A stretch of DNA of 64,000 bases, taken from the NCBI GenBank assembly GCA_050246875.1, contig JBFWVF010000001.1:146566-210565 (forward strand), given 5' to 3'. Source of the stretch: Alphaproteobacteria bacterium (GTDB lineage Bacteria > Pseudomonadota > Alphaproteobacteria > UBA6615). The number at the start of each line of letters is the position of its first letter. Position 1 is the stretch's first letter. Below are positions 16,049 to 40,227 of the stretch, piece by piece. The translations under genes were made by a program, and so were the position numbers. The notes under the pieces are model-generated. The model made no database searches and was not told the origin of the DNA. It saw nothing but the letters and a program-made list of their open reading frames with translations.

Positions 16049-16191
16049 GCCGGGTCCCGGCGCACCCCATGTTCTAGCGCAGCGCCGCCCCGACCGCCAT
16101 CGGGGCTACCCTTTGACCTGCGTCAAGGTGGTCCGGTCGGCATGGCCCGATGCTGCTTCGATCAGCCCCCGGCTGTGCAAGGAGGATTGCC

Positions 16192-16824
16192 ATGACCGCC
16201 CTGAGGGCGCCGGCCCGCGCGCCGCGCATCCAGTTCAGCCATTTCGGCATCAACGTCCGCGATCTCGCCCGGATGGAGGATTTCTACACCCGCGTCGTCG
16301 GCTTCAACGTCACGGACCGCGGCGGCGTGCCGGCGCTCGGCATCGAGCTGGTGTTCATGAGCATGGACCCGACCGAGCACCACCAGTTCGTCATCTGCAC
16401 CGCGCCCGAGGACGAGTTGGGCAAGAACAAGCGCAATGCCTTCTTCGGCGGCGCCATCAACCAGCTTTCCTTCCGCCTCGAATCGCTCGACGATTTGCGC
16501 ATCATGCGCAACCGCCTCGCCGCCGAGCTGGGCGAGGACAACCTGATGACCGGCACGCACGGCATCGCCTGGTCGTGCTACGCCCGCGATCCCGAGGGCA
16601 ACACGATGGAGTTCTTCGTCGACTCGCCGTGGTTCGTCGACCAGCCCTTCCTCGAGCCGATCGATCTCGCGAAGTCCGACGCCGAGATCGTGGCCGAAAC
16701 GGAGAAGCTGGTGCGCGACAAGCCCGGCTTCCGGCCCTACGACAAGTACCGGGCCGAGCTGTCGCGCATGATGAGCCGGCCGGTGGTCAGCCGGCCGTTC
16801 GGCCCGGCGGCGGGGCCGGCGTGA
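16192..16824 (+). CDS. VOC-family protein (glyoxalase / extradiol dioxygenase fold)
   Basis: Start ATG 16192 preceded by GGAGGA; IQFSHFGINVRDLARMEDFY...HHQFV typical VOC beta-alpha-beta-beta-beta modules. Confidence 0.7.
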   Translation: MTALRAPARAPRIQFSHFGINVRDLARMEDFYTRVVGFNVTDRGGVPALGIELVFMSMDPTEHHQFVICTAPEDELGKNKRNAFFGGAINQLSFRLESLDDLRIMRNRLAAELGEDNLMTGTHGIAWSCYARDPEGNTMEFFVDSPWFVDQPFLEPIDLAKSDAEIVAETEKLVRDKPGFRPYDKYRAELSRMMSRPVVSRPFGPAAGPA

Positions 16825-16825
16825 C

Positions 16826-17254
16826 CTAGGAGGTGATGTAGTCGCGCAGCGCCGCCGCCTCGGTCTCGGCGGCGTCGATGCGGGCCTTCACGAGGTCGCC
16901 GATCGACACGATGCCGACCAGCCGGCCGGCGTCGACCACCGGCAGGTGGCGGCAGCGCCGATCGGTCATCACCGACATCAGTTCGACCACGTCGTCGCCG
17001 GGCGCGCAGGTGATGACCTGTCGCGTCAGTGCGTCGTTGACGAAGCGTTCGAGCACGCCGACGCCGCGCAGCGCGACCTGGGTGACGATGTCGCGCTCCG
17101 ACAGGATGCCGTCGACGCGGGCACCGTCGTTGCTGACGACGAGGCAACCGATGCGGCAGGCGGCCATCTGCTCGCAGGCCTGGTGCAGCGTTGCCTCCGG
17201 TGCGATCGTTTCGACGATGGCGCCCTTGCGGCGCAGGATGTCGCGAACTTCCAT
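16826..17254 (-). CDS. CBS-domain pair protein
   Basis: Start at MEVRDILRRKG; two CBS repeats (VVDAGRLVGIVSIGDLV). Confidence 0.75.
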   Translation of the reverse strand: MEVRDILRRKGAIVETIAPEATLHQACEQMAACRIGCLVVSNDGARVDGILSERDIVTQVALRGVGVLERFVNDALTRQVITCAPGDDVVELMSVMTDRRCRHLPVVDAGRLVGIVSIGDLVKARIDAAETEAAALRDYITS

Positions 17255-17484
17255 CGCGGTTGCCTCCCTTGCAGGGGGAGGGCCCGTCGCGGCACGCGCG
17301 ACGGCGCACCTACCCGGGCGGGCAACGCTTGTGCGCCGGCACCGGTTCCCGGCCGGCGCCCGCGCACCGTGCATGCCTGTCGGCTGTTGCCCGCTGCGTC
17401 AGCCGGCAAGGCGGTGCGTCGGGCGAGGCCAGTATAGCACGGATCGTGGGCCGGCGCCCGCGCCGGGCGCCGGCCCGCCCGGGA

Positions 17485-18426
17485 TCAGCTCCAGGCGACG
17501 CAGGGGTTCTCCAGCGTGCCGACCCCGCCGATGGTGATCTTCACCCTGTCGCCGGGCTTGAGGTAGCGGCCCTTGTCGACGCCGGCGCCAACGCCGGGCG
17601 TCGTGCCGGTGGCGATGAGGTCGCCCGGCAGCACGGTGACGCGCGCCGAGATGAACTCGATCTGCTCTTCGATGTTGAAGATCATGTCGGAGGCGATGGC
17701 GTCCTGCTCGTGGCGCTCGTTGACCCACAGGTCGATCTTGCACTGGTAGGGATCGGGGATCTGCTTGGCCGGCACGATCCACGGGCCGTGCGGCGCCGAG
17801 GTGTCGAAGCTCTTCCAGACGAACCAGTCCGAGCCGAGCTTCGGCCAGTCCTCGCGCCGCCGGTCGCGGATCGACACGTCGTTGAACACCGTGTAGCCGG
17901 CGACGACCGAGCGCGCGTTCTTCGTCGTCAGCTTCGAGCCGCGCCGGCCGATGACGACGCCCAGCTCCGCCTCCCAGTCGATGGCCTGGCTGACATCGGG
18001 CGTCGGCAGGCGGATGGCGTCGCCGGGGCCGATCGTGCAGTGCACCGGCGCCTTGAGGAAGATGTACGGCTTCATCGCCGCCTTCTGCTCGGGCGTGATG
18101 CCGCCGACGCCCATCTCGACGCGGTGGCCGTGGTAGTTGGCGGCGGCGTTGTAGATGATGTTCGGGTAGAGCAGCGGCGGGCGCAGCTTCACGCCCGAGA
18201 GCGCGACCGACGCGACCTTGTCGCGTGACGCGGCATCGGCGATCTCCTCCAGCACCGGCTCGGCCGCGTCCCAGTTCTGCAGCATCGCCACGTTGGAGAC
18301 CGTCGAGAAGCCGACGCCGCGCCCCTTGCAGGCGGCGGCGAGGTCGACCACCCGTTCGCCCACGGCGATCCCCGGCAACGGCGCCCCGTCCAGCCCGGTG
18401 TAGGTGAGGATTCGGTAGTCGGCCAT
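17485..18426 (-). CDS. Fumarylacetoacetate hydrolase (FAH) family protein
   Basis: 313 aa; FAH-fold motifs DWEAELGVVIG, GDLIATGTPGVG. Confidence 0.85.
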   Translation of the reverse strand: MADYRILTYTGLDGAPLPGIAVGERVVDLAAACKGRGVGFSTVSNVAMLQNWDAAEPVLEEIADAASRDKVASVALSGVKLRPPLLYPNIIYNAAANYHGHRVEMGVGGITPEQKAAMKPYIFLKAPVHCTIGPGDAIRLPTPDVSQAIDWEAELGVVIGRRGSKLTTKNARSVVAGYTVFNDVSIRDRRREDWPKLGSDWFVWKSFDTSAPHGPWIVPAKQIPDPYQCKIDLWVNERHEQDAIASDMIFNIEEQIEFISARVTVLPGDLIATGTTPGVGAGVDKGRYLKPGDRVKITIGGVGTLENPCVAWS

Positions 18427-18625
18427 GCGTCTCTCCCTGAAACATCACGCCCATTGCGGGCGCGCTGGGGCCCGACGAGCTTACCGAAAAGCATGATCCG
18501 GTGGCTATCGCAGCCGAAACCAAACGGGGCCCCACTGTCATACCCCAACGCCGGTGAATGCAAATGTTTGAGGGTCAAGTGCAGGACATGGTAAAAGATT
18601 TAGATTCGGCTAGGAACACGGTAAA

Positions 18626-19837
18626 ATGGCAAATGACCTTATACTCGCGCCGTCGGTGGAGCTTATTCGGGCGTCCAATGTTCATGCCCTACTGGCCCGC
18701 GTCCGGCCCCAATGGCAGGCAAAAGCACTAATTGATCGCGTCCGACGATTACTCGATGTGGACCCGAGCAGTGCTTGTCAAAGACTCTTGAACGCCGCCA
18801 TCCATGACTTACGAGAAAAAATCATAATTGCAGGAATTGATATCGCAACTGAGGCAGCAAAACAATCCAAACTTCCTCCTATTACTAATTCTGAAGATAT
18901 AGAAAATTACTCGACGTTGAAGTTAATCGATCTAGCATATAGAATGGGCCTGCTTTCCCGTTCCGAATGGCGTCGGGTTTCACGTTGTTATGAGATACGC
19001 CGTGATCTCGAACATGAGGACGACGAATACGAAGCAGGCGTGGAAGATTGCGTGTATATATTCACGACATGTATAGAGGTAATTCTTTCAAAAGATCCAG
19101 TTCAACTGATCAAGGTTACCGATTTTAAAGGGCTGATTGAGCAGCCTTCCGCAGTCGTTCCTGATCGAGTTTTTCTTGAAGATTTTCGAAACGCGCCCCA
19201 GCCTCGCCAAGAAGAAATTCTAAAGTTCCTAGTTTCCCATGCACTAAACAAAGGTGTTGCTGATGTCGTTCAACAAAATGCCTATACTTGTATTACCTAC
19301 CTTCGACCAGTTACCCAAGCCGCAGTTTCCGCTAGAATAGGGGATCACCTTCAGAGTATAGCTGGTAGGAAAATTGATGCGCGTATGGCACGGGTAGCCC
19401 ATGCGGCCGGAGTGTTTCCCTATCTGCGGCAGTCAGCGCGGCTTGCGTTTTTCGAAGAATTCTTCGGCAACATGGAAAAAGTTGGCACACATTGGACCGC
19501 CCACGGTGATCATGGTGATCTTCTTCGTTCATTCATTGATTTTGGAGGCCTCGAGAACTGTCCGCGCGAAATTCGGGAGTCTATTTTGAAATGGCTTGTT
19601 CTTACTTATGTGGGCACCCCAGGAGGGCCCACAAGATACGGTAATGTGCGCCATGTTTTCTATAGCAATTCTGCGGCCCCGGTGATCAAAGAGATTATTT
19701 CCAAATCAGCTCGCAGTATCCGAGCTGATTTGGAAGCTCTGCGCGCTGACAAACATGTGAAAGAGGCCCTTTGTAACGACTATATTTCTCGCCGGTTCGA
19801 AACACTAATCGATCTCGTTGAGACTGAGGGAGCATAA
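18626..19837 (+). CDS. Hypothetical protein, low-GC, with HEPN-like Rx4H motif (R125-RDLE-H130); no recognisable family
   Basis: 403 aa; AT-rich codon usage (AAA, ATT, TTA, GAT) contrasting with the GC3-rich host; SRSEWRRVSRCYEIRRDLEHEDDEY in a helical N-terminal region; C-terminal about 250 aa unassignable. Confidence 0.5.
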   Translation: MANDLILAPSVELIRASNVHALLARVRPQWQAKALIDRVRRLLDVDPSSACQRLLNAAIHDLREKIIIAGIDIATEAAKQSKLPPITNSEDIENYSTLKLIDLAYRMGLLSRSEWRRVSRCYEIRRDLEHEDDEYEAGVEDCVYIFTTCIEVILSKDPVQLIKVTDFKGLIEQPSAVVPDRVFLEDFRNAPQPRQEEILKFLVSHALNKGVADVVQQNAYTCITYLRPVTQAAVSARIGDHLQSIAGRKIDARMARVAHAAGVFPYLRQSARLAFFEEFFGNMEKVGTHWTAHGDHGDLLRSFIDFGGLENCPREIRESILKWLVLTYVGTPGGPTRYGNVRHVFYSNSAAPVIKEIISKSARSIRADLEALRADKHVKEALCNDYISRRFETLIDLVETEGA

Positions 19838-19873
19838 GGAGAAGATCAAATTGCAGATACCAAATTCTGGCAT

Positions 19874-19959
19874 TGGTGGCCCCTCCGGGACTCGAACCCG
19901 GACCGCCGAAAGCGTGCGGATTTTAAGTCCGCTGCGTCTACCAGTTCCGCCAAGGGGCC
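19874..19959 (-). tRNA. tRNA-Leu (anticodon UAA), type II with long variable arm, encoded CCA
   Basis: Reverse complement GGCCCCTTGGCGGAACTGGTAGACGCAGCGGACTTAAAATCCGCACGCTTTCGGCGGTCCGGGTTCGAGTCCCGGAGGGGCCACCA folds as a cloverleaf: acceptor GGCCCCT/AGGGGCC, anticodon loop CTTAAAA, T-arm CCGGG-TTCGAGT-CCCGG. Confidence 0.85.
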
Positions 19960-20013
19960 GCTCCAATAAAGTACTCTAAATACGCCACCTCATGTTTACC
20001 TACGCAATGTCAG
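19960..20013 (-). promoter_or_regulatory. Putative sigma70-type promoter for tRNA-Leu (TTGCGT, about 18-19 nt spacer, TATTTA), leader processed by RNase P
   Basis: Upstream sequence on the minus strand: ACTGACATTGCGTAGGTAAACATGAGGTGGCGTATTTAGAGTACTTTATTGGAGC. Confidence 0.2.
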
Positions 20014-20664
20014 TTAGTCGCTAAGAGTACCTTCAACGCGTCGCAGGAGCATCCGTCCAAGAGATATGCATTGCTCGGAAACATGCTTGTCCAATCGAGG
20101 AGCAAGCCTGTCGGTTAGGTCGCCGCCACCTACATCACGGTAAAACGCAGCGTTTTTCAATTGACTGAGACGAGCAGCTGTAGCCTCGCTTAGAATTCCA
20201 TCGATACCCTCGGATTTCGCTTTCTGCGCCATCAACACATGAAGCTCGTCCAACCATCGACCCGAAAAAAAGTCGCGATTGAAATCTTGGCCACGCGGGG
20301 ACGCAAGCCATTCTTTTTGAGAATTTGTCATCTTCGATTTATGAATTAATTCAAATCCATATGCCTCAGTCCACTCTATGATCGAACGCACATACAATTC
20401 CGACAGCGCAACAGATCCAGCTACCCTTTGTTTATGCGTGTGGACAGTAATTTTACGGATGCTATCGTCTTCTCTGCCATTGGCCCATCGCAAAATGAAA
20501 ACTTTCCCGCACTCTTCAATCGCTAACACAGCCAAACCGATAGCTGATTGAAAACGTCCAAGTTCGTTGAGTGCCTCAGAATCTGCCAATAACCTTTGCG
20601 CATTTTTCAATATTTCACGCGATTCTGCTCCATCTAGTCGAGTATGGCCTTCAATCCTCGCCAA
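20014..20664 (-). CDS. AbiV-like HEPN-domain protein (candidate abortive-infection / RNase-type defence protein)
   Basis: About 216 aa, low GC; LAVLAIEECGKVFILR helix and Rx4H motif R-KITV-H (SIRKITVHTHK); the first 17 codons of track ORF 20014..20715 are GC-rich and overlap the cinA 3' end, so start placed at TTG 20664 (uncertain). Confidence 0.5.
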   Translation of the reverse strand: MARIEGHTRLDGAESREILKNAQRLLADSEALNELGRFQSAIGLAVLAIEECGKVFILRWANGREDDSIRKITVHTHKQRVAGSVALSELYVRSIIEWTEAYGFELIHKSKMTNSQKEWLASPRGQDFNRDFFSGRWLDELHVLMAQKAKSEGIDGILSEATAARLSQLKNAAFYRDVGGGDLTDRLAPRLDKHVSEQCISLGRMLLRRVEGTLSD

Positions 20665-20677
20665 TTCTGTCCCCCGC

Positions 20678-21439
20678 TCAGTCCACCACCTCGGTCGGCA
20701 CCCCGCCGAGGTCAACGATCAGCGCCTTGATGCGCGCGGTGGCTTCGTCGAGGCGCAGCGGGTCGGGGCCGCGCGCGACGAGGTTGGTGCCGGGCTTGCC
20801 GCCGACGAAGTGCGGGTAGGAACCGATATCGACATCGGGGAAATCGTCCTGCACGGCAGTCAGGCCGTCGGCGATGACGCCCTCCGGCAGCGGGCAGCCG
20901 ACGGTGCGCGACAGGATGGTCACGCCACCCTTCAGGTACTGCTTCGCCGAGATGAACATCGCCTGCATGATGCGCGGGATGCCGGCCATGACGAAGACGT
21001 TCTCGACGCGGAAGCCGGGCGCGCCCGAGACCGGGTTCTCGACCAGTTCGGCGCGCTCGGGCGTGCGCGCCATGCGCAGCCGCGCCTCGGTCACTTCGAC
21101 GCCCATCTGCGCCATGCGCGCGCGCAGGATGCGCTCGGCCTCCGGGTGCAGGATGAGCTTCTGGCCGAACGCCTTGGCGACGCAGTCGGCGGTGATGTCG
21201 TCGTGCGTCGGGCCGATGCCGCCGGTGGTGAAGACATAGTCGTAGCGGGCGCGCAGCGCGTTCACCGCGTCGACGATCTCGACCTCGATGTCGGGCACGA
21301 CGCGCGCCTCGCGCAGTTGCACGCCGGCCTTGTTCAGCTCGACGGCGAGCCAGGCCAGGTTGGCGTCCTGCGTGCGCCCGGAGAGAATCTCGTTGCCGAT
21401 GATGAGGACGGCGGCCGTGACCTGCCCGGGCACCGCCAT
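20678..21439 (-). CDS. cinA: CinA-like competence/damage-inducible protein, molybdopterin-binding (MoCF) domain only
   Basis: 253 aa; LIIGNEILSGRTQDANLAWLA and GGIGPTHDDIT motifs. Confidence 0.8.
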   Translation of the reverse strand: MAVPGQVTAAVLIIGNEILSGRTQDANLAWLAVELNKAGVQLREARVVPDIEVEIVDAVNALRARYDYVFTTGGIGPTHDDITADCVAKAFGQKLILHPEAERILRARMAQMGVEVTEARLRMARTPERAELVENPVSGAPGFRVENVFVMAGIPRIMQAMFISAKQYLKGGVTILSRTVGCPLPEGVIADGLTAVQDDFPDVDIGSYPHFVGGKPGTNLVARGPDPLRLDEATARIKALIVDLGGVPTEVVD

Positions 21440-36555: not shown

Positions 36556-37359
36556 CTATCGCCGCCGCCGGTAGGTTCGCAGTTCCTCGGGCGAAATCTG
36601 ATCGGCGGGAACGAGCCGGTAGTGGCGCTCGTCGACGACCCGAACCTCATCGTCATCGATCGTCAGTTCGAACAATGCAATCAGATCGTCGGCCATGAAT
36701 TGGGTGGAGATAGCGCGGCACACGAGGCTCGGAAATTTCTCCGAGCAGCAATCGATGTCTTGTTGCGTCTGCAGGACGGACAGTTGGTCCGTTCCACCCT
36801 TCGCTTGTACCGGTATGACGTATTGGCATCCCTGCCGGTCGATTCCGACATAAATCTCGTCGATCTCGATCTGACCGGTACCGCGTACGGTCGTACGTAA
36901 ATGATTTTGCAAAGAGTAGGACGCAATACCCAGGAAAATATCGATCAATCGGTTGTAACGGACCTTTGCGAGTAGCGCCTGTTCGTCGGACAGCGCATGC
37001 GCCGTTACGATCTCGGGCGTCGCGTTCGGCACTTTGATCGCAACGAGATTCGGATTTGGGCGAATACGATTCAGGGTGACGAGGGCGAACTCGTAGGCCG
37101 CTCGTCCAGTGCCCTTGATAACCCATTCTTTTCCGGCTGGCTGTGTCGCAAGTATCGTTTCTGGCATTGGCGTCCGGTAACGAAGCGAATAGACGACATC
37201 GCCAAGGTTCTTCGGAAGACGGATTTCCAGGGTCGAGGCGGCCTCCTCGATATCGACCCGACGAAACGGCAGTCGATCGGAAGTACGACGATACCGATCA
37301 AAAAAAAATTTCTCGATCAGTCGCTTGTAGATGTTAGGGCGCTCGTCGCGCTTAGGCAT
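36556..37359 (-). CDS. Putative type II restriction endonuclease (PD-(D/E)XK-like), cognate to the adjacent m5C methyltransferase
   Basis: 267 aa from MPKRDERPNIYKRLIEK; starts 2 nt after the MTase stop; candidate catalytic segment IEIDEIYVGID...VIPVQAKGG; lower GC; no family assignable by eye. Confidence 0.5.
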   Translation of the reverse strand: MPKRDERPNIYKRLIEKFFFDRYRRTSDRLPFRRVDIEEAASTLEIRLPKNLGDVVYSLRYRTPMPETILATQPAGKEWVIKGTGRAAYEFALVTLNRIRPNPNLVAIKVPNATPEIVTAHALSDEQALLAKVRYNRLIDIFLGIASYSLQNHLRTTVRGTGQIEIDEIYVGIDRQGCQYVIPVQAKGGTDQLSVLQTQQDIDCCSEKFPSLVCRAISTQFMADDLIALFELTIDDDEVRVVDERHYRLVPADQISPEELRTYRRRR

Positions 37360-38695
37360 GGACGCCACTCGTCGAACCGTTGCGAACGGCTTCGATGTCC
37401 GCCTGCTTGCGCTTGCGTGCGCCGCTCTTCCGATCCCGTCGGCCAATGGGGGCGGGAATGCCGAAATAGGCGCACGCTTCCGACATACCTAGACGCAACA
37501 ACTCCGGATCGCCCAATTCGAGAGTCGTACTCGGCCTGGTCGGACGAACGCCGAGAGCGGATAAAACTTCTTGTGCGACGGCTCTGGCGAGCGGCGGCGG
37601 GACAGCGTTACCGACTTGCCGAGCGCCATGCCATTTCGTTGCATGAAAGCGAAACCAATCCGGAAACCCATGCAAACGGGCCATCTCGCGAACGGTCACA
37701 CACCGTGGCGCTCGATAGTGGATCGGACGTGGACTCGTAAAGGCGCCACGAGCCGAATCGGTCCCCGCTCGCAAAGTGTTCGATACTCCGTGTGCGGACA
37801 GGCGGAAAAAGCGGGAGATCGGCTCGACCTCGCCGGGCGCGGTCTCGGCAAACCGGCGTCGCGATATCTCGGAGTGACCCGTTCTCATACTGGAGGTGAG
37901 AATAGCTGGATCCCATAGCCTAGGGTATCCGTACCCCCACGATTCATTGTCGAGACAACGCATAGTTCGCGCGTAAGGACTGGCTTCGCCCCAATCGGCG
38001 ACCCGCACGAAGTCGCCGTCGATCAACTCGGGCCAGCGCTCGGGATCGGGCAAGTCGGACAGCGCATCGAGGCACGTCGGGCCGTCCGAAAGAAATGCAT
38101 CGGACGTCCGCGAGCGACGATTCGTCGAACGTGTCGTCGGGTCCGGATACTTCGGCAACGCGCAACCGAACCGCGCGCCGACAAGAAAAAGGCGCTCCCG
38201 ATCCTGCGGCACGCCATAGGACGAGGCGTTCAAGACGCGCCAGGGGGAAAGCACGCGGTATCCGATTTCCCGGAATGCCCAGATTACTTCATCGAGGAAC
38301 GCCCGGTGCCGCCCAACCGTCAAACCCTTGACATTCTCGAACACGAAGTACGTTGGCTCTAGCTCCGCAACGATGCGGACAAACTCGCGGACGAGAGAGT
38401 TTCGCGGATCGTCGAGGGCACGATGTCCAATCAGCGAGAACCCTTGGCAGGGTGCTCCTCCGAACACGACATCGACGCGGCGGTCGCCTATTCCGGCCGT
38501 GCGACGGATTTCGGTACCGGTCAATCCTACGACCGAACGGGGAATAACTGCGCAGCGGGGAAAGTTGAACTTGTGGATCGCAGCATGGATGGGGTCGTAC
38601 TCGGCAGCGGCCACGACATCGAAGCCGGCCTGCTCGAAACCGAGACTGAGGCCACCCGCCCCGGAAAACAGGTCTATTCCGATCGGTCGGCGCAT
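37352..38695 (-). CDS. DNA (cytosine-5)-methyltransferase
   Basis: 447 aa; motif I DLFSGAGG, motif IV GGAPCQGFS, motif VI ENV, motif X QVGNAVPPPLA. Confidence 0.9.
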   Translation of the reverse strand: MRRPIGIDLFSGAGGLSLGFEQAGFDVVAAAEYDPIHAAIHKFNFPRCAVIPRSVVGLTGTEIRRTAGIGDRRVDVVFGGAPCQGFSLIGHRALDDPRNSLVREFVRIVAELEPTYFVFENVKGLTVGRHRAFLDEVIWAFREIGYRVLSPWRVLNASSYGVPQDRERLFLVGARFGCALPKYPDPTTRSTNRRSRTSDAFLSDGPTCLDALSDLPDPERWPELIDGDFVRVADWGEASPYARTMRCLDNESWGYGYPRLWDPAILTSSMRTGHSEISRRRFAETAPGEVEPISRFFRLSAHGVSNTLRAGTDSARGAFTSPRPIHYRAPRCVTVREMARLHGFPDWFRFHATKWHGARQVGNAVPPPLARAVAQEVLSALGVRPTRPSTTLELGDPELLRLGMSEACAYFGIPAPIGRRDRKSGARKRKQADIEAVRNGSTSGVHA

Positions 38696-38765
38696 CGTTG
38701 GTCCTCTCGACCGTGATCGTTCTTATTTTGTTCCGAAACTCGTCCCCGGTGCAAGGATCGAAGCC

Positions 38766-39173
38766 TCAGCACTCGAGGAAAGCGACCACGCGCGATAGGG
38801 CTTCCTCTGGAGCCCGCAATTCGCACTGCCAAACGACGAATACATCCCACCCTGCCGACTGCAACTCTCTTGTCTTCCGTACGTCGCGTGCCCGATTCGC
38901 GGCGATCTTCGGTATCCAGTATTCCCTGCGACTCTTCGGCAATAGGCCCCAACGGCATCCGTGGCCATGCCAAAAGCAACCGTTGACGAACACGACCTTC
39001 CTTCGCCTAGGAAACGCGATGTCGGGGGAACCGGGCAAAGTTCGTACGTGCAGACGAAATCGATAGCCGGCTCGATGCAACAATTTGCGGAGAACCAACT
39101 CGGGGCCGGTATTGCGCGTACCGACGCTGGCCATTATCGCGCTGCGAACCGGGGAGGAAACACGATCGACCAT
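38766..39173 (-). CDS. vsr: Very short patch repair endonuclease
   Basis: Start at MVDRVSS; TRNTGPELVLRKLLHRAGYRFRLH...PDIAF...VFVNGCFWHGH...DVFVVWQCEL match the Vsr family; internal start of track ORF 38766..39374. Confidence 0.85.
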   Translation of the reverse strand: MVDRVSSPVRSAIMASVGTRNTGPELVLRKLLHRAGYRFRLHVRTLPGSPDIAFPRRRKVVFVNGCFWHGHGCRWGLLPKSRREYWIPKIAANRARDVRKTRELQSAGWDVFVVWQCELRAPEEALSRVVAFLEC

Positions 39174-39366
39174 CGATCGATTGTAACGTGGTATCGTGAC
39201 CGTCGTTAGGCCGTTACGAGCTGGCACAAAGCCCCGACCCGCCGGCGCAAGGCGGCGGGCGATTTGCGCGTGTTGCGCCTCGTCCGGGACGACGGCCAAC
39301 GCATACAAATCCCCATCGAATCCATCCGCTATACTCGCGCCTTCGATCCACGGGAGCGCGCGCGGG

Positions 39367-40227
39367 ATGGCCATCGTCTACGACAAGCTGATGGCGCTGG
39401 AGATTCCGGATGTCGTGCACACCTACACGGTGCGCGACACCATCCTCTATGCGCTGGGCCTGGGCTTCGGCGCCGACCCGCTCGACCCGCACGAGCTGCG
39501 CTTCGTCTATGAGGACGGGCTCGTCGCCTGCCCGACCCTGGCGACCGTGCTCGCCCGGCCCGTCTTCTGGATGCGCGAACTCGATACCGGCCTCGACTAC
39601 GCCGGCATCGTCCATGGCGAGCAGGCGGTGACGATCCATCGGCCGTTGCCCGTCGCCGGCACGGTGCGCGGCCGCACCGTCATTCGCGAGATCATCGACA
39701 AGGGGCCGGGCAAGGGCGCCTTCATCGTCAACTCCCGCGAGGTGACGGACGAGGCGACGGGCGCAAGGCTGGCGACCCTCGACCAGGTCTACGTCGCGCG
39801 CAACGACGGCGGCTTCGGCGGCCCTAACCCGCCCGCGCCCCGTCCGGCGCCGCCGCCGGAGCGCGCGCCCGATGCCGTGGTCGAGATCGCGACGCTGCCG
39901 CAGGCGGCGCTGATCTATCGCCTCTCCGGCGACATGAACCCGCTGCACGCCGACCCGCGCGCCGCCGCCGCGGCCGGCTTTCCGCGGCCGATCCTGCACG
40001 GTCTCGGCACCTTCGGGGTGGCGGCACGGGCGGTCATCCGCGCCCTGTGCCCCGAGCGGCCCGACCGCCTCGTCGCCGTCTCGGCCCGCTTCTCGGCGCC
40101 GGTCTTTCCCGGCGAGACGATGGCCACCGACATCTGGCGCGACGGCGAGACGGTGCGGTTCCAGTCACGCGTCGCCGCCCGCGACACCGTCGTGCTGCGT
40201 AACGGCGCCGCGCGGCTGCACGGCTGA
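39367..40227 (+). CDS. MaoC-like (R)-specific enoyl-CoA hydratase, double hotdog
   Basis: 286 aa from MAIVYDKL; N-terminal hotdog plus C-terminal MaoC dehydratase segment SGDMNPLHADP. Confidence 0.8.
   Translation: MAIVYDKLMALEIPDVVHTYTVRDTILYALGLGFGADPLDPHELRFVYEDGLVACPTLATVLARPVFWMRELDTGLDYAGIVHGEQAVTIHRPLPVAGTVRGRTVIREIIDKGPGKGAFIVNSREVTDEATGARLATLDQVYVARNDGGFGGPNPPAPRPAPPPERAPDAVVEIATLPQAALIYRLSGDMNPLHADPRAAAAAGFPRPILHGLGTFGVAARAVIRALCPERPDRLVAVSARFSAPVFPGETMATDIWRDGETVRFQSRVAARDTVVLRNGAARLHG

Follow-up and report, generated by a model that had tools for sequence, protein, structure and literature searches.

In a 64,000-nucleotide stretch of alphaproteobacterial DNA (the window; positions 146,566 to 210,565 of contig JBFWVF010000001.1, lineage UBA6615), a segment of low guanine-plus-cytosine (GC) content surrounds a tRNA-Leu(UAA) gene and carries two open reading frames (ORFs), ORF1 and ORF2. 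Both ORFs encode proteins of the HEPN type, and the original prediction made from the sequence had proposed that they constitute a novel HEPN/HEPN pair. Our analysis led to a different reading, to which we assign a probability of about 0.62: ORF1 and ORF2 are two unrelated single-gene defence cassettes that were separately acquired by horizontal transfer and flank a resident tRNA-Leu(UAA) gene, one to either side. The tRNA gene would then have served as an insertion hotspot and not as a functional partner. This reading is built on the fold of ORF1 and the conservation of its motif, on two insertions that are separate, on a distribution that is sporadic and shows no conserved partners, and on a base composition that is foreign, as described below.

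The GC content of positions 18474-20673 was 0.482, the minimum among all 2.2-kb stretches in the window, whereas the two 4-kb flanks had values of 0.703 and 0.709. Along the window, the value fell from approximately 0.70 to 0.41-0.54 between positions of approximately 18500 and 20700, so that the sharply bounded drop around the tRNA gene described earlier was reproduced. The GC contents of the two genes were nearly equal (0.475 for ORF1 and 0.472 for ORF2). The segment is flanked by a gene of the FAA-hydrolase family (FAH; 17485-18426, minus strand) and by a CinA-like gene with a MoCF_biosynth domain (cinA; 20678-21439, minus strand). The tRNA-Leu(UAA) gene was mapped to positions 19874-19959 of the minus strand by ARAGORN and scored 60.7 bits with the Rfam tRNA model; according to both, it is the sole tRNA gene in the window. 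While cinA, ORF2 (20014-20664), the tRNA gene, and FAH are all encoded on the minus strand, ORF1 (18626-19837) alone is on the plus strand. The view that both ORFs converge on the tRNA gene consequently holds for ORF1, but not for ORF2, which lies upstream of the tRNA gene and is co-directional with it.

No integrase gene was found in the islet, whose genes are ORF1, the tRNA gene, and ORF2 only. A second copy of the tRNA 3' end (a direct repeat of at least 15 nucleotides (nt), with up to 3 mismatches allowed) was absent from the window, and no decayed tRNA copy was found at the FAH-proximal boundary, where the local alignment score was 14 versus a shuffle mean of 15.2. These results support the conclusion that the low-GC segment, located at a tRNA gene, was acquired horizontally and lacks an integrase. 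They also agree with the original prediction in that the locus is a compact defence-type islet at a tRNA hotspot rather than a full integrative element.

The insertion history was examined using two close relatives, L092 and L083, which are short metagenomic contigs from different samples. In L092, whose FAH is 91% identical in amino acid sequence, the glyoxalase-CBS-FAH gene order is the same as that in the window, and the contig is colinear with positions 16168-18473 at 87% nucleotide identity. The tRNA-Leu(UAA) gene of L092 is 94.7% identical to positions 19966-19874, including 7 nt of the 5' flank, and only 37 nt separate its 3' end from the start codon of FAH. Because the tRNA gene of L092 directly adjoins FAH, the ORF1 module (18474-19873, plus strand; 1,400 nt; GC content 0.477), which directly abuts the tRNA-Leu 3' end, is interpreted as a 1,400-nt insertion at that end. 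The sequence TGGGGCCC at positions 18466-18473 matches TGGTGGCCC at the tRNA 3' end (19874-19882) at 8 of 9 nt, and the two alignments with L092 share 9 nt where the module begins. Judging from the alignments, this microhomology, the only repeat seen at the tRNA 3' end, may represent a short target duplication or a crossover site.

On the other side of the tRNA gene, the homology with L092 ends 7 nt 5' of the tRNA. The match with L083, whose CinA is 95% identical in amino acid sequence, ends at position 20674, only 4 nt beyond the stop codon of cinA. The next 217 nt of L083 are GC-rich, resemble repetitive extragenic palindromes (REP), and have no match in the window. Since the homology of L083 and L092 stops at its edges, the module containing ORF2 (the AbiV module; 19967-20673, minus strand; 707 nt; GC content 0.468), which fills the space from the cinA stop codon to the 5' flank of the tRNA gene, appears to replace the native cinA-tRNA spacer. 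In the relatives, this spacer contains REP-like GC-rich hairpins, CCTCATnnTGAGCnTGTCGAA... (L083:1440-1530 and L092:1-29), which are absent from the window. The start codon of ORF2 is located 13 nt from the cinA stop codon; because of this distance and of the end of homology 4 nt after the stop codon, the AbiV cassette must have carried virtually no upstream DNA. The comparison thus points to insertions that occurred separately on the two sides of a tRNA-Leu gene that lies outside both modules, and to the displacement of the native upstream region of tRNA-Leu by the AbiV cassette. The contiguity expected for an empty site was observed in part: FAH and the tRNA gene adjoin each other without ORF1 in L092, and cinA occurs without AbiV in L083, but no one relative shows the whole site. 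Two further relatives with a 77%-identical FAH (L090 and L091) were set aside because their differing gene context was uninformative for synteny.

These breakpoints also bear on the alternative that the islet is the remnant of a larger tRNA-integrating island, in which both genes arrived together and the integrase and attachment repeats were subsequently lost. The insertion of the ORF1 module exactly at the tRNA 3' end, which is the classic integration point, together with the 8/9-nt junction repeat and the equal GC contents of the two genes, is what such an island would leave behind. However, cargo exactly at the tRNA 3' end was found for the ORF1 module only; the AbiV module is located 5' of the tRNA, where tRNA-targeting integrases place no cargo. 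Moreover, neither an integrase nor a long repeat of the tRNA 3' end is present in the window, and each module barely exceeds its gene in size. Decay of a single island is accordingly regarded as improbable, and two separate acquisitions remain the preferred reading.

ORF2 (216 amino acids, with a TTG start codon that is the same as that assigned by NCBI) is clearly, on the basis of its sequence, an ordinary though divergent member of the AbiV family. It matched the Pfam model PF18728 HEPN_AbiV with 60.9 bits (E-value of 2.1e-16; cut-off, 27.1), the NCBIfam model TIGR04498 AbiV_defense with 58.7 bits (cut-off, 27), and the AbiV model of PADLOC with an E-value of 1.6e-5, and the identical protein is named AbiV family abortive infection protein by NCBI. 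The original prediction had regarded both ORFs as unannotatable, which is true of ORF1 but not of ORF2. The predicted Rx4H motif of ORF2 (R70-K-I-T-V-H75; 20440-20457, minus strand) was found in place, and R70 and H75 are conserved in an AbiV protein encoded on a Klebsiella plasmid (WP_318523630.1). The helix motif EECGK (residues 50-54; 20503-20517, minus strand) is likewise AbiV-like as had been proposed, since LAIEE-x-GKV is conserved with the Klebsiella AbiV. The AbiV of Lactococcus is a HEPN ribonuclease (RNase) with the catalytic residues R91 and H97 (bioRxiv 10.1101/2024.05.05.592566), to which R70 and H75 of ORF2 correspond in position. In a tblastn search against plasmids, ORF2 matched the AbiV genes of Klebsiella and Vibrio conjugative plasmids only in the region of the EECGK helix, and a word-indexed search of 5.8 billion proteins returned ORF2 itself alone. 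A sequence search of the PDB with ORF2 gave nothing meaningful.

ORF1 (403 amino acids) showed no match at an E-value of 1 or less to Pfam, NCBIfam, or PADLOC, and searches of the PDB with its sequence and with its profile gave nothing meaningful; a weak match was obtained to phrog_27609 (2e-15), to which no function is assigned. The AlphaFold2 model of ORF1 (predicted local distance difference test score, 88.7) consists of an N-terminal HEPN domain (approximately residues 30-158; 18713-19099, plus strand) and a C-terminal alpha-solenoid domain (residues 160-403; 19103-19834, plus strand). The N-terminal domain has the four-helix up-down fold of HEPN proteins, which is the outcome anticipated for a structural model. 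When the full model was compared with the PDB by Foldseek, the only hits were designed armadillo repeats (E-values of 5e-3 or higher). The C-terminal domain, which matches no named family as had been noted earlier, contains an invariant Gly-rich loop (GxPGGxTxYGNVRxVFYSN).

The Rx4H motif of ORF1 (R125-R-D-L-E-H130; 18998-19015, plus strand) also lies where it had been predicted and is conserved in homologues. Within the motif YEIRRDLEHEDDEYEA, no variation was seen at R125, D127, L128, E129, H130, E131, or D132 among 57 homologues with identities of 57-84%, and 13 of the 16 cluster representatives of full length, with identities as low as 28%, retain the R/H pair. The assignment of ORF1 as a HEPN protein is therefore supported by the predicted fold and by conservation, and R125 and H130 are the predicted catalytic pair of a putative RNase. 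The N-terminal domain is also found in other architectures. In P0194 (870 amino acids) and P0260 (687 amino acids), an ORF1-type N-terminal domain is fused to PAS-GAF-PAS-HisKA; P0194 has an additional HATPase domain, and the HisKA match of P0260 is marginal. The catalytic R is absent from the N-terminal domains of both proteins, and the H is also absent from one of them, which suggests that this domain is used non-catalytically, for sensing or dimerisation. At positions 19699-19735, inside the part of the ORF1 coding sequence that encodes a variable portion of the protein, an inverted repeat was observed whose 15-bp stem is perfect and whose loop measures 7 nt. The 45-nt stretch holding it folds with a dG of −23.9 kcal/mol, and the repeat is absent from 80 homologous genes, in which the best stems are 7-9 bp long and located elsewhere.

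More than 1,270 proteins were related to ORF1 at an E-value of 1e-3 or less; the best 120 of them were 58-100% identical to ORF1, and the family comprises 212 clusters at the 50% identity level. Genomic copies, with identities of 40-84%, occur sporadically in Alpha-, Gamma-, and Deltaproteobacteria, Verrucomicrobia, Planctomycetes, Bacteroidota, Actinobacteria, Chloroflexi, Firmicutes, and one Altiarchaeote. The GC content of the ORF1 homologue was more than 5 points below that of its flanks in 41 of 68 loci and was never above it by that margin. Members are present on plasmids of Streptomyces and Klebsiella. A distant relative in Klebsiella, which has the motif RNLFGGH, was aligned with ORF1 by hhalign with a probability of 98.4% (E-value of 4e-15 over 368 columns); on a Klebsiella variicola plasmid, this relative adjoins the anti-phage gene Ppl and genes for a Fic protein and a P-loop NTPase. 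The E. coli counterpart of the Klebsiella relative (approximately 91% nucleotide identity) was found in 12 of 5,426 complete genomes. In E. coli EC931, it (WP_016247987.1; NZ_CP049118.1:501084-502400; L095:9001-10317) is located at the accessory end of a satellite that resembles phage-inducible chromosomal islands (PICI), contains genes for an integrase, a primase, an Icd-like protein, a capsid protein, and a head-decoration protein, and interrupts the major capsid gene of a prophage. On the sequence data, the ORF1 family is widespread, strongly conserved, and horizontally mobile, and it is named by no annotation library.

In order to identify possible partners of ORF1, the ORFs within 4 kb were clustered by all-against-all BLAST for 81 loci (80 related loci and the window). 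No conserved partner was found, since no neighbour family occurred in more than 8 of the 81 loci; the commonest families were integrases and subunits of type I restriction systems. When the 139 nearest neighbours were scanned with Pfam and PADLOC, no conserved partner emerged, and no Pfam family was seen in more than 3 of them. The neighbours include HsdR/HsdM, Mrr, HNH, SNF2, UvrD/GajB-like helicases, Vsr, and C5 methylases, as well as relaxases, transposases, and integrases. The closest homologue, which is 84% identical, is located beside two Cas1 fragments, a DndB-like gene, and a D12 methyltransferase gene (L001/L003:160-4640); an unannotated ORF of 275 amino acids lies directly upstream of it. 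Nucleotide similarity to all homologous loci is limited to positions 18621-19827, which is the ORF1 coding sequence, and for this reason no flanking RNA or attachment site seems to be conserved. A conserved adjacent non-coding RNA was not found for ORF1, although a fast-evolving RNA could escape detection in a comparison in which the nearest homologue has 73% nucleotide identity. Taken qualitatively, the gene context of ORF1 resembles the usual guilt-by-association pattern of defence genes.

The same loci were used to evaluate the proposal that ORF1 and ORF2 form a two-component HEPN/HEPN system that acts on or via the intervening tRNA-Leu. The two genes are physically adjacent and similar in GC content, both products are HEPN proteins, and tRNAs are frequent targets of HEPN RNases (bioRxiv 10.64898/2026.02.22.705581), all of which would fit such a system. 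However, hmmsearch and phmmer detected no AbiV-like ORF among 5,508 ORFs in 83 loci with flanks of up to 10 kb, and AbiV was not among the recurrent neighbour families. The tRNA adjacency is not conserved either: a tRNA gene was present within 1.5 kb in 3 of 80 other loci, and it was a different one each time (Thr, Met, and Pro). Furthermore, ORF1 and ORF2 are on opposite strands and are split by a tRNA gene that is resident in the relatives, and each has a separate breakpoint. The pair is thus largely refuted, and we regard it as highly improbable; neither a two-gene system of ORF1 and ORF2 nor the inclusion of tRNA-Leu in an ORF1 system is supported by these comparisons.

In the preferred reading, ORF1 would work alone as a sensor-effector. 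Its HEPN domains would dimerise to form an RNase site, and the solenoid domain would keep the enzyme inactive until an infection cue is bound. Activated ORF1 would then cut tRNA or rRNA, and the infection would be aborted, following the logic of DARNA, a HEPN protein of E. coli that is compared with ORF1 below. That ORF1 has RNase activity, acts on such an RNA, responds to such a trigger, and protects against phages are predictions of this model. The ORF1 family might accordingly be a new, widespread single-protein anti-phage sensor, in which the C-terminal solenoid with its Gly-rich loop senses the cue and switches on the HEPN RNase; the family could have branched off distantly from the DARNA type, or it could have arrived at this design independently. 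We consider the chances of this being correct to be even. The family occurs in at least 10 bacterial phyla and an archaeon, with approximately 60% identity across phyla.

Alternatively, ORF1 could have no anti-phage role and instead serve mobile elements selfishly, as an addiction or toxin gene, or act in RNA processing or regulation, and its spread would then reflect the maintenance of these elements. The frequent integrases, relaxases, and transposases among its neighbours, its presence on Streptomyces and Klebsiella plasmids, and the lack of a PADLOC match are consistent with this possibility, as is the reuse of the N-terminal domain without catalytic residues in PAS-GAF histidine kinases. 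On the other hand, no conserved antitoxin gene or flanking RNA accompanies ORF1, and the gene stands alone in the window without a mobile element. Defence genes directly adjoin ORF1 homologues in several loci, and strong purifying selection on a stand-alone gene, seen as approximately 60% identity across phyla, fits a self-contained sensor-effector better. A selfish or regulatory role is therefore regarded as unlikely, though less so than the decay of a single island, and the reading of ORF1 as a defence cassette is retained.

As for ORF2, phage infection would lift its inhibition, rRNA would be degraded, and the infected cell would stop protein synthesis, by analogy with lactococcal AbiV. A promoter scan of the minus strand upstream of ORF2 and the tRNA gene revealed no σ70-like site, which is weak negative evidence. 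ORF2 is wedged between a host gene and the tRNA gene and seems to lack its own promoter. Because there is neither upstream non-coding DNA nor a σ70-like site, ORF2 and the tRNA gene may be transcribed by read-through from cinA, so that the AbiV gene seems to be co-transcribed with tRNA-Leu(UAA). It is conceivable that the promoter-less AbiV gene uses the tRNA-Leu(UAA) precursor instead of an upstream antitoxin RNA, but we attach very little weight to this addition. The leucine codons TTA and TTG, which are read by tRNA-Leu(UAA), were observed to cluster in the islet genes, with TTA/TTG counts of 3/4 in ORF1 and 3/10 in ORF2 versus 0/1 in FAH and 0/0 in cinA. Because of these higher counts, the foreign genes would rely on tRNA-Leu(UAA) more than the host genes do.

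Several points weigh against the proposed reading. The empty-site evidence is pieced together from two contigs, and no single relative shows a complete empty site. The 13-nt gap between cinA and ORF2 leaves no room for an upstream antitoxin RNA, and ORF2 may be regulated differently, or may be poorly controlled or silent; an RNA that overlaps cinA, lies inside ORF2, or is located downstream could still serve as its antitoxin. With regard to ORF1, the defence role of the family is a prediction from sequence and modelling. Its gene was present on 2 of 2.9 million viral contigs (IMG/VR) and in no GenBank phage record; because so few viral contigs carry it, there is no direct link to phages. No PADLOC model matched ORF1 or six distant relatives at an E-value of 1 or less, and ORF1 is on that account not a recognised defence family. 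The neighbour evidence is qualitative and lacks a matched control for the enrichment of defence genes. Three divergent members and the two histidine-kinase fusions lack the R/H pair, and because of this loss the HEPN domain can play non-catalytic roles. Finally, the homology of ORF1 to DARNA is unproven, and the two were likened by the published description of the DARNA architecture.

The ORF1 family is missed entirely by the current annotation and defence-finder libraries. The members on the E. coli satellite and the Klebsiella plasmid make its function testable in a model host. If ORF1 is indeed a defence protein, a common single-gene system would be added to the catalogue, and its sensor domain would provide a second example, beside DARNA, of how HEPN-solenoid proteins detect infection. 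The locus itself suggests that a tRNA gene can receive small cassettes devoid of promoters on both of its flanks with no integrase involved.

A second low-GC islet was observed at positions 36600-39400 of the window, with a GC content of 0.54-0.62 compared with 0.72-0.77 on its flanks. It contains genes for a C5 cytosine DNA methylase (37352-38695, minus strand) and a Vsr mismatch endonuclease (38766-39374, minus strand) as well as an unannotated ORF (36556-37446, minus strand), and it probably represents a type II restriction-modification cassette.

Among known systems, the AbiV of Lactococcus (PF18728 and TIGR04498) is similar to ORF2 in the IEExGK helix and the Rx4-5H motif of the HEPN core, and ORF2 is likewise a small stand-alone protein of approximately 200 amino acids. 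In contrast, ORF2 carries an extra segment of approximately 50 residues compared with the Klebsiella AbiV. Lactococcal AbiV is preceded by the non-coding antitoxin RNA abiV2, with which it makes up a toxin-antitoxin pair of type III, whereas ORF2 has no upstream non-coding space.

The PADLOC-DB v2 collection includes PD-T7 models, and ORF1 and the six distant relatives had no match in it at an E-value of 1 or less, so that no sequence homology to PD-T7-3 was detected. DARNA corresponds to PD-T7-3 of E. coli ECOR30 (RCP48690.1; supplement of PMC9519451). It is a single-protein system of 456 amino acids, in which a HEPN domain with R117x4H122 (amino acids 1-159) is followed by a Pds5-like helical domain (amino acids 160-456); it forms a dodecamer, is switched on by single-stranded DNA that the single-stranded DNA-binding protein of the phage presents, and cuts the anticodon loops of tRNAs (bioRxiv 10.64898/2026.02.22.705581). 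ORF1 resembles DARNA in that one polypeptide contains an N-terminal HEPN domain, extending to approximately residue 158, followed by an all-helical solenoid of the HEAT/Pds5-like kind. The Rx4H residues are R117 and H122 in DARNA and R125 and H130 in ORF1, and the proteins differ in length (456 versus 403 amino acids). The dodecamer, the activation by single-stranded DNA, and the tRNA cleavage are features of DARNA, to which ORF1 is likened by domain layout alone. By this analogy, DARNA may be a model for how ORF1 works rather than its family.

Single-protein HEPN abortive-infection nucleases, such as ApeA, HepS, BxaP/DUF4145, AbiJ, and AbiU2, have C-terminal domains that are unrelated to that of ORF1, and ORF1 did not match the Pfam models of ApeA, DUF4145, and AbiU2-type nucleases (HEPN_Apea, DUF4145, HEPN_AbiU2, and others) at an E-value of 1 or less. 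The locus as a whole is similar to tRNA-linked defence hotspots and integrase-less islets, in which small, variable, low-GC cargo is located at a tRNA gene between housekeeping genes and differs among close relatives. It differs from them in its very small size, in carrying cargo to both sides of the tRNA gene with a single gene on each, and in the loss of the native upstream region of the tRNA gene, whose place is taken by the 5'-side module.

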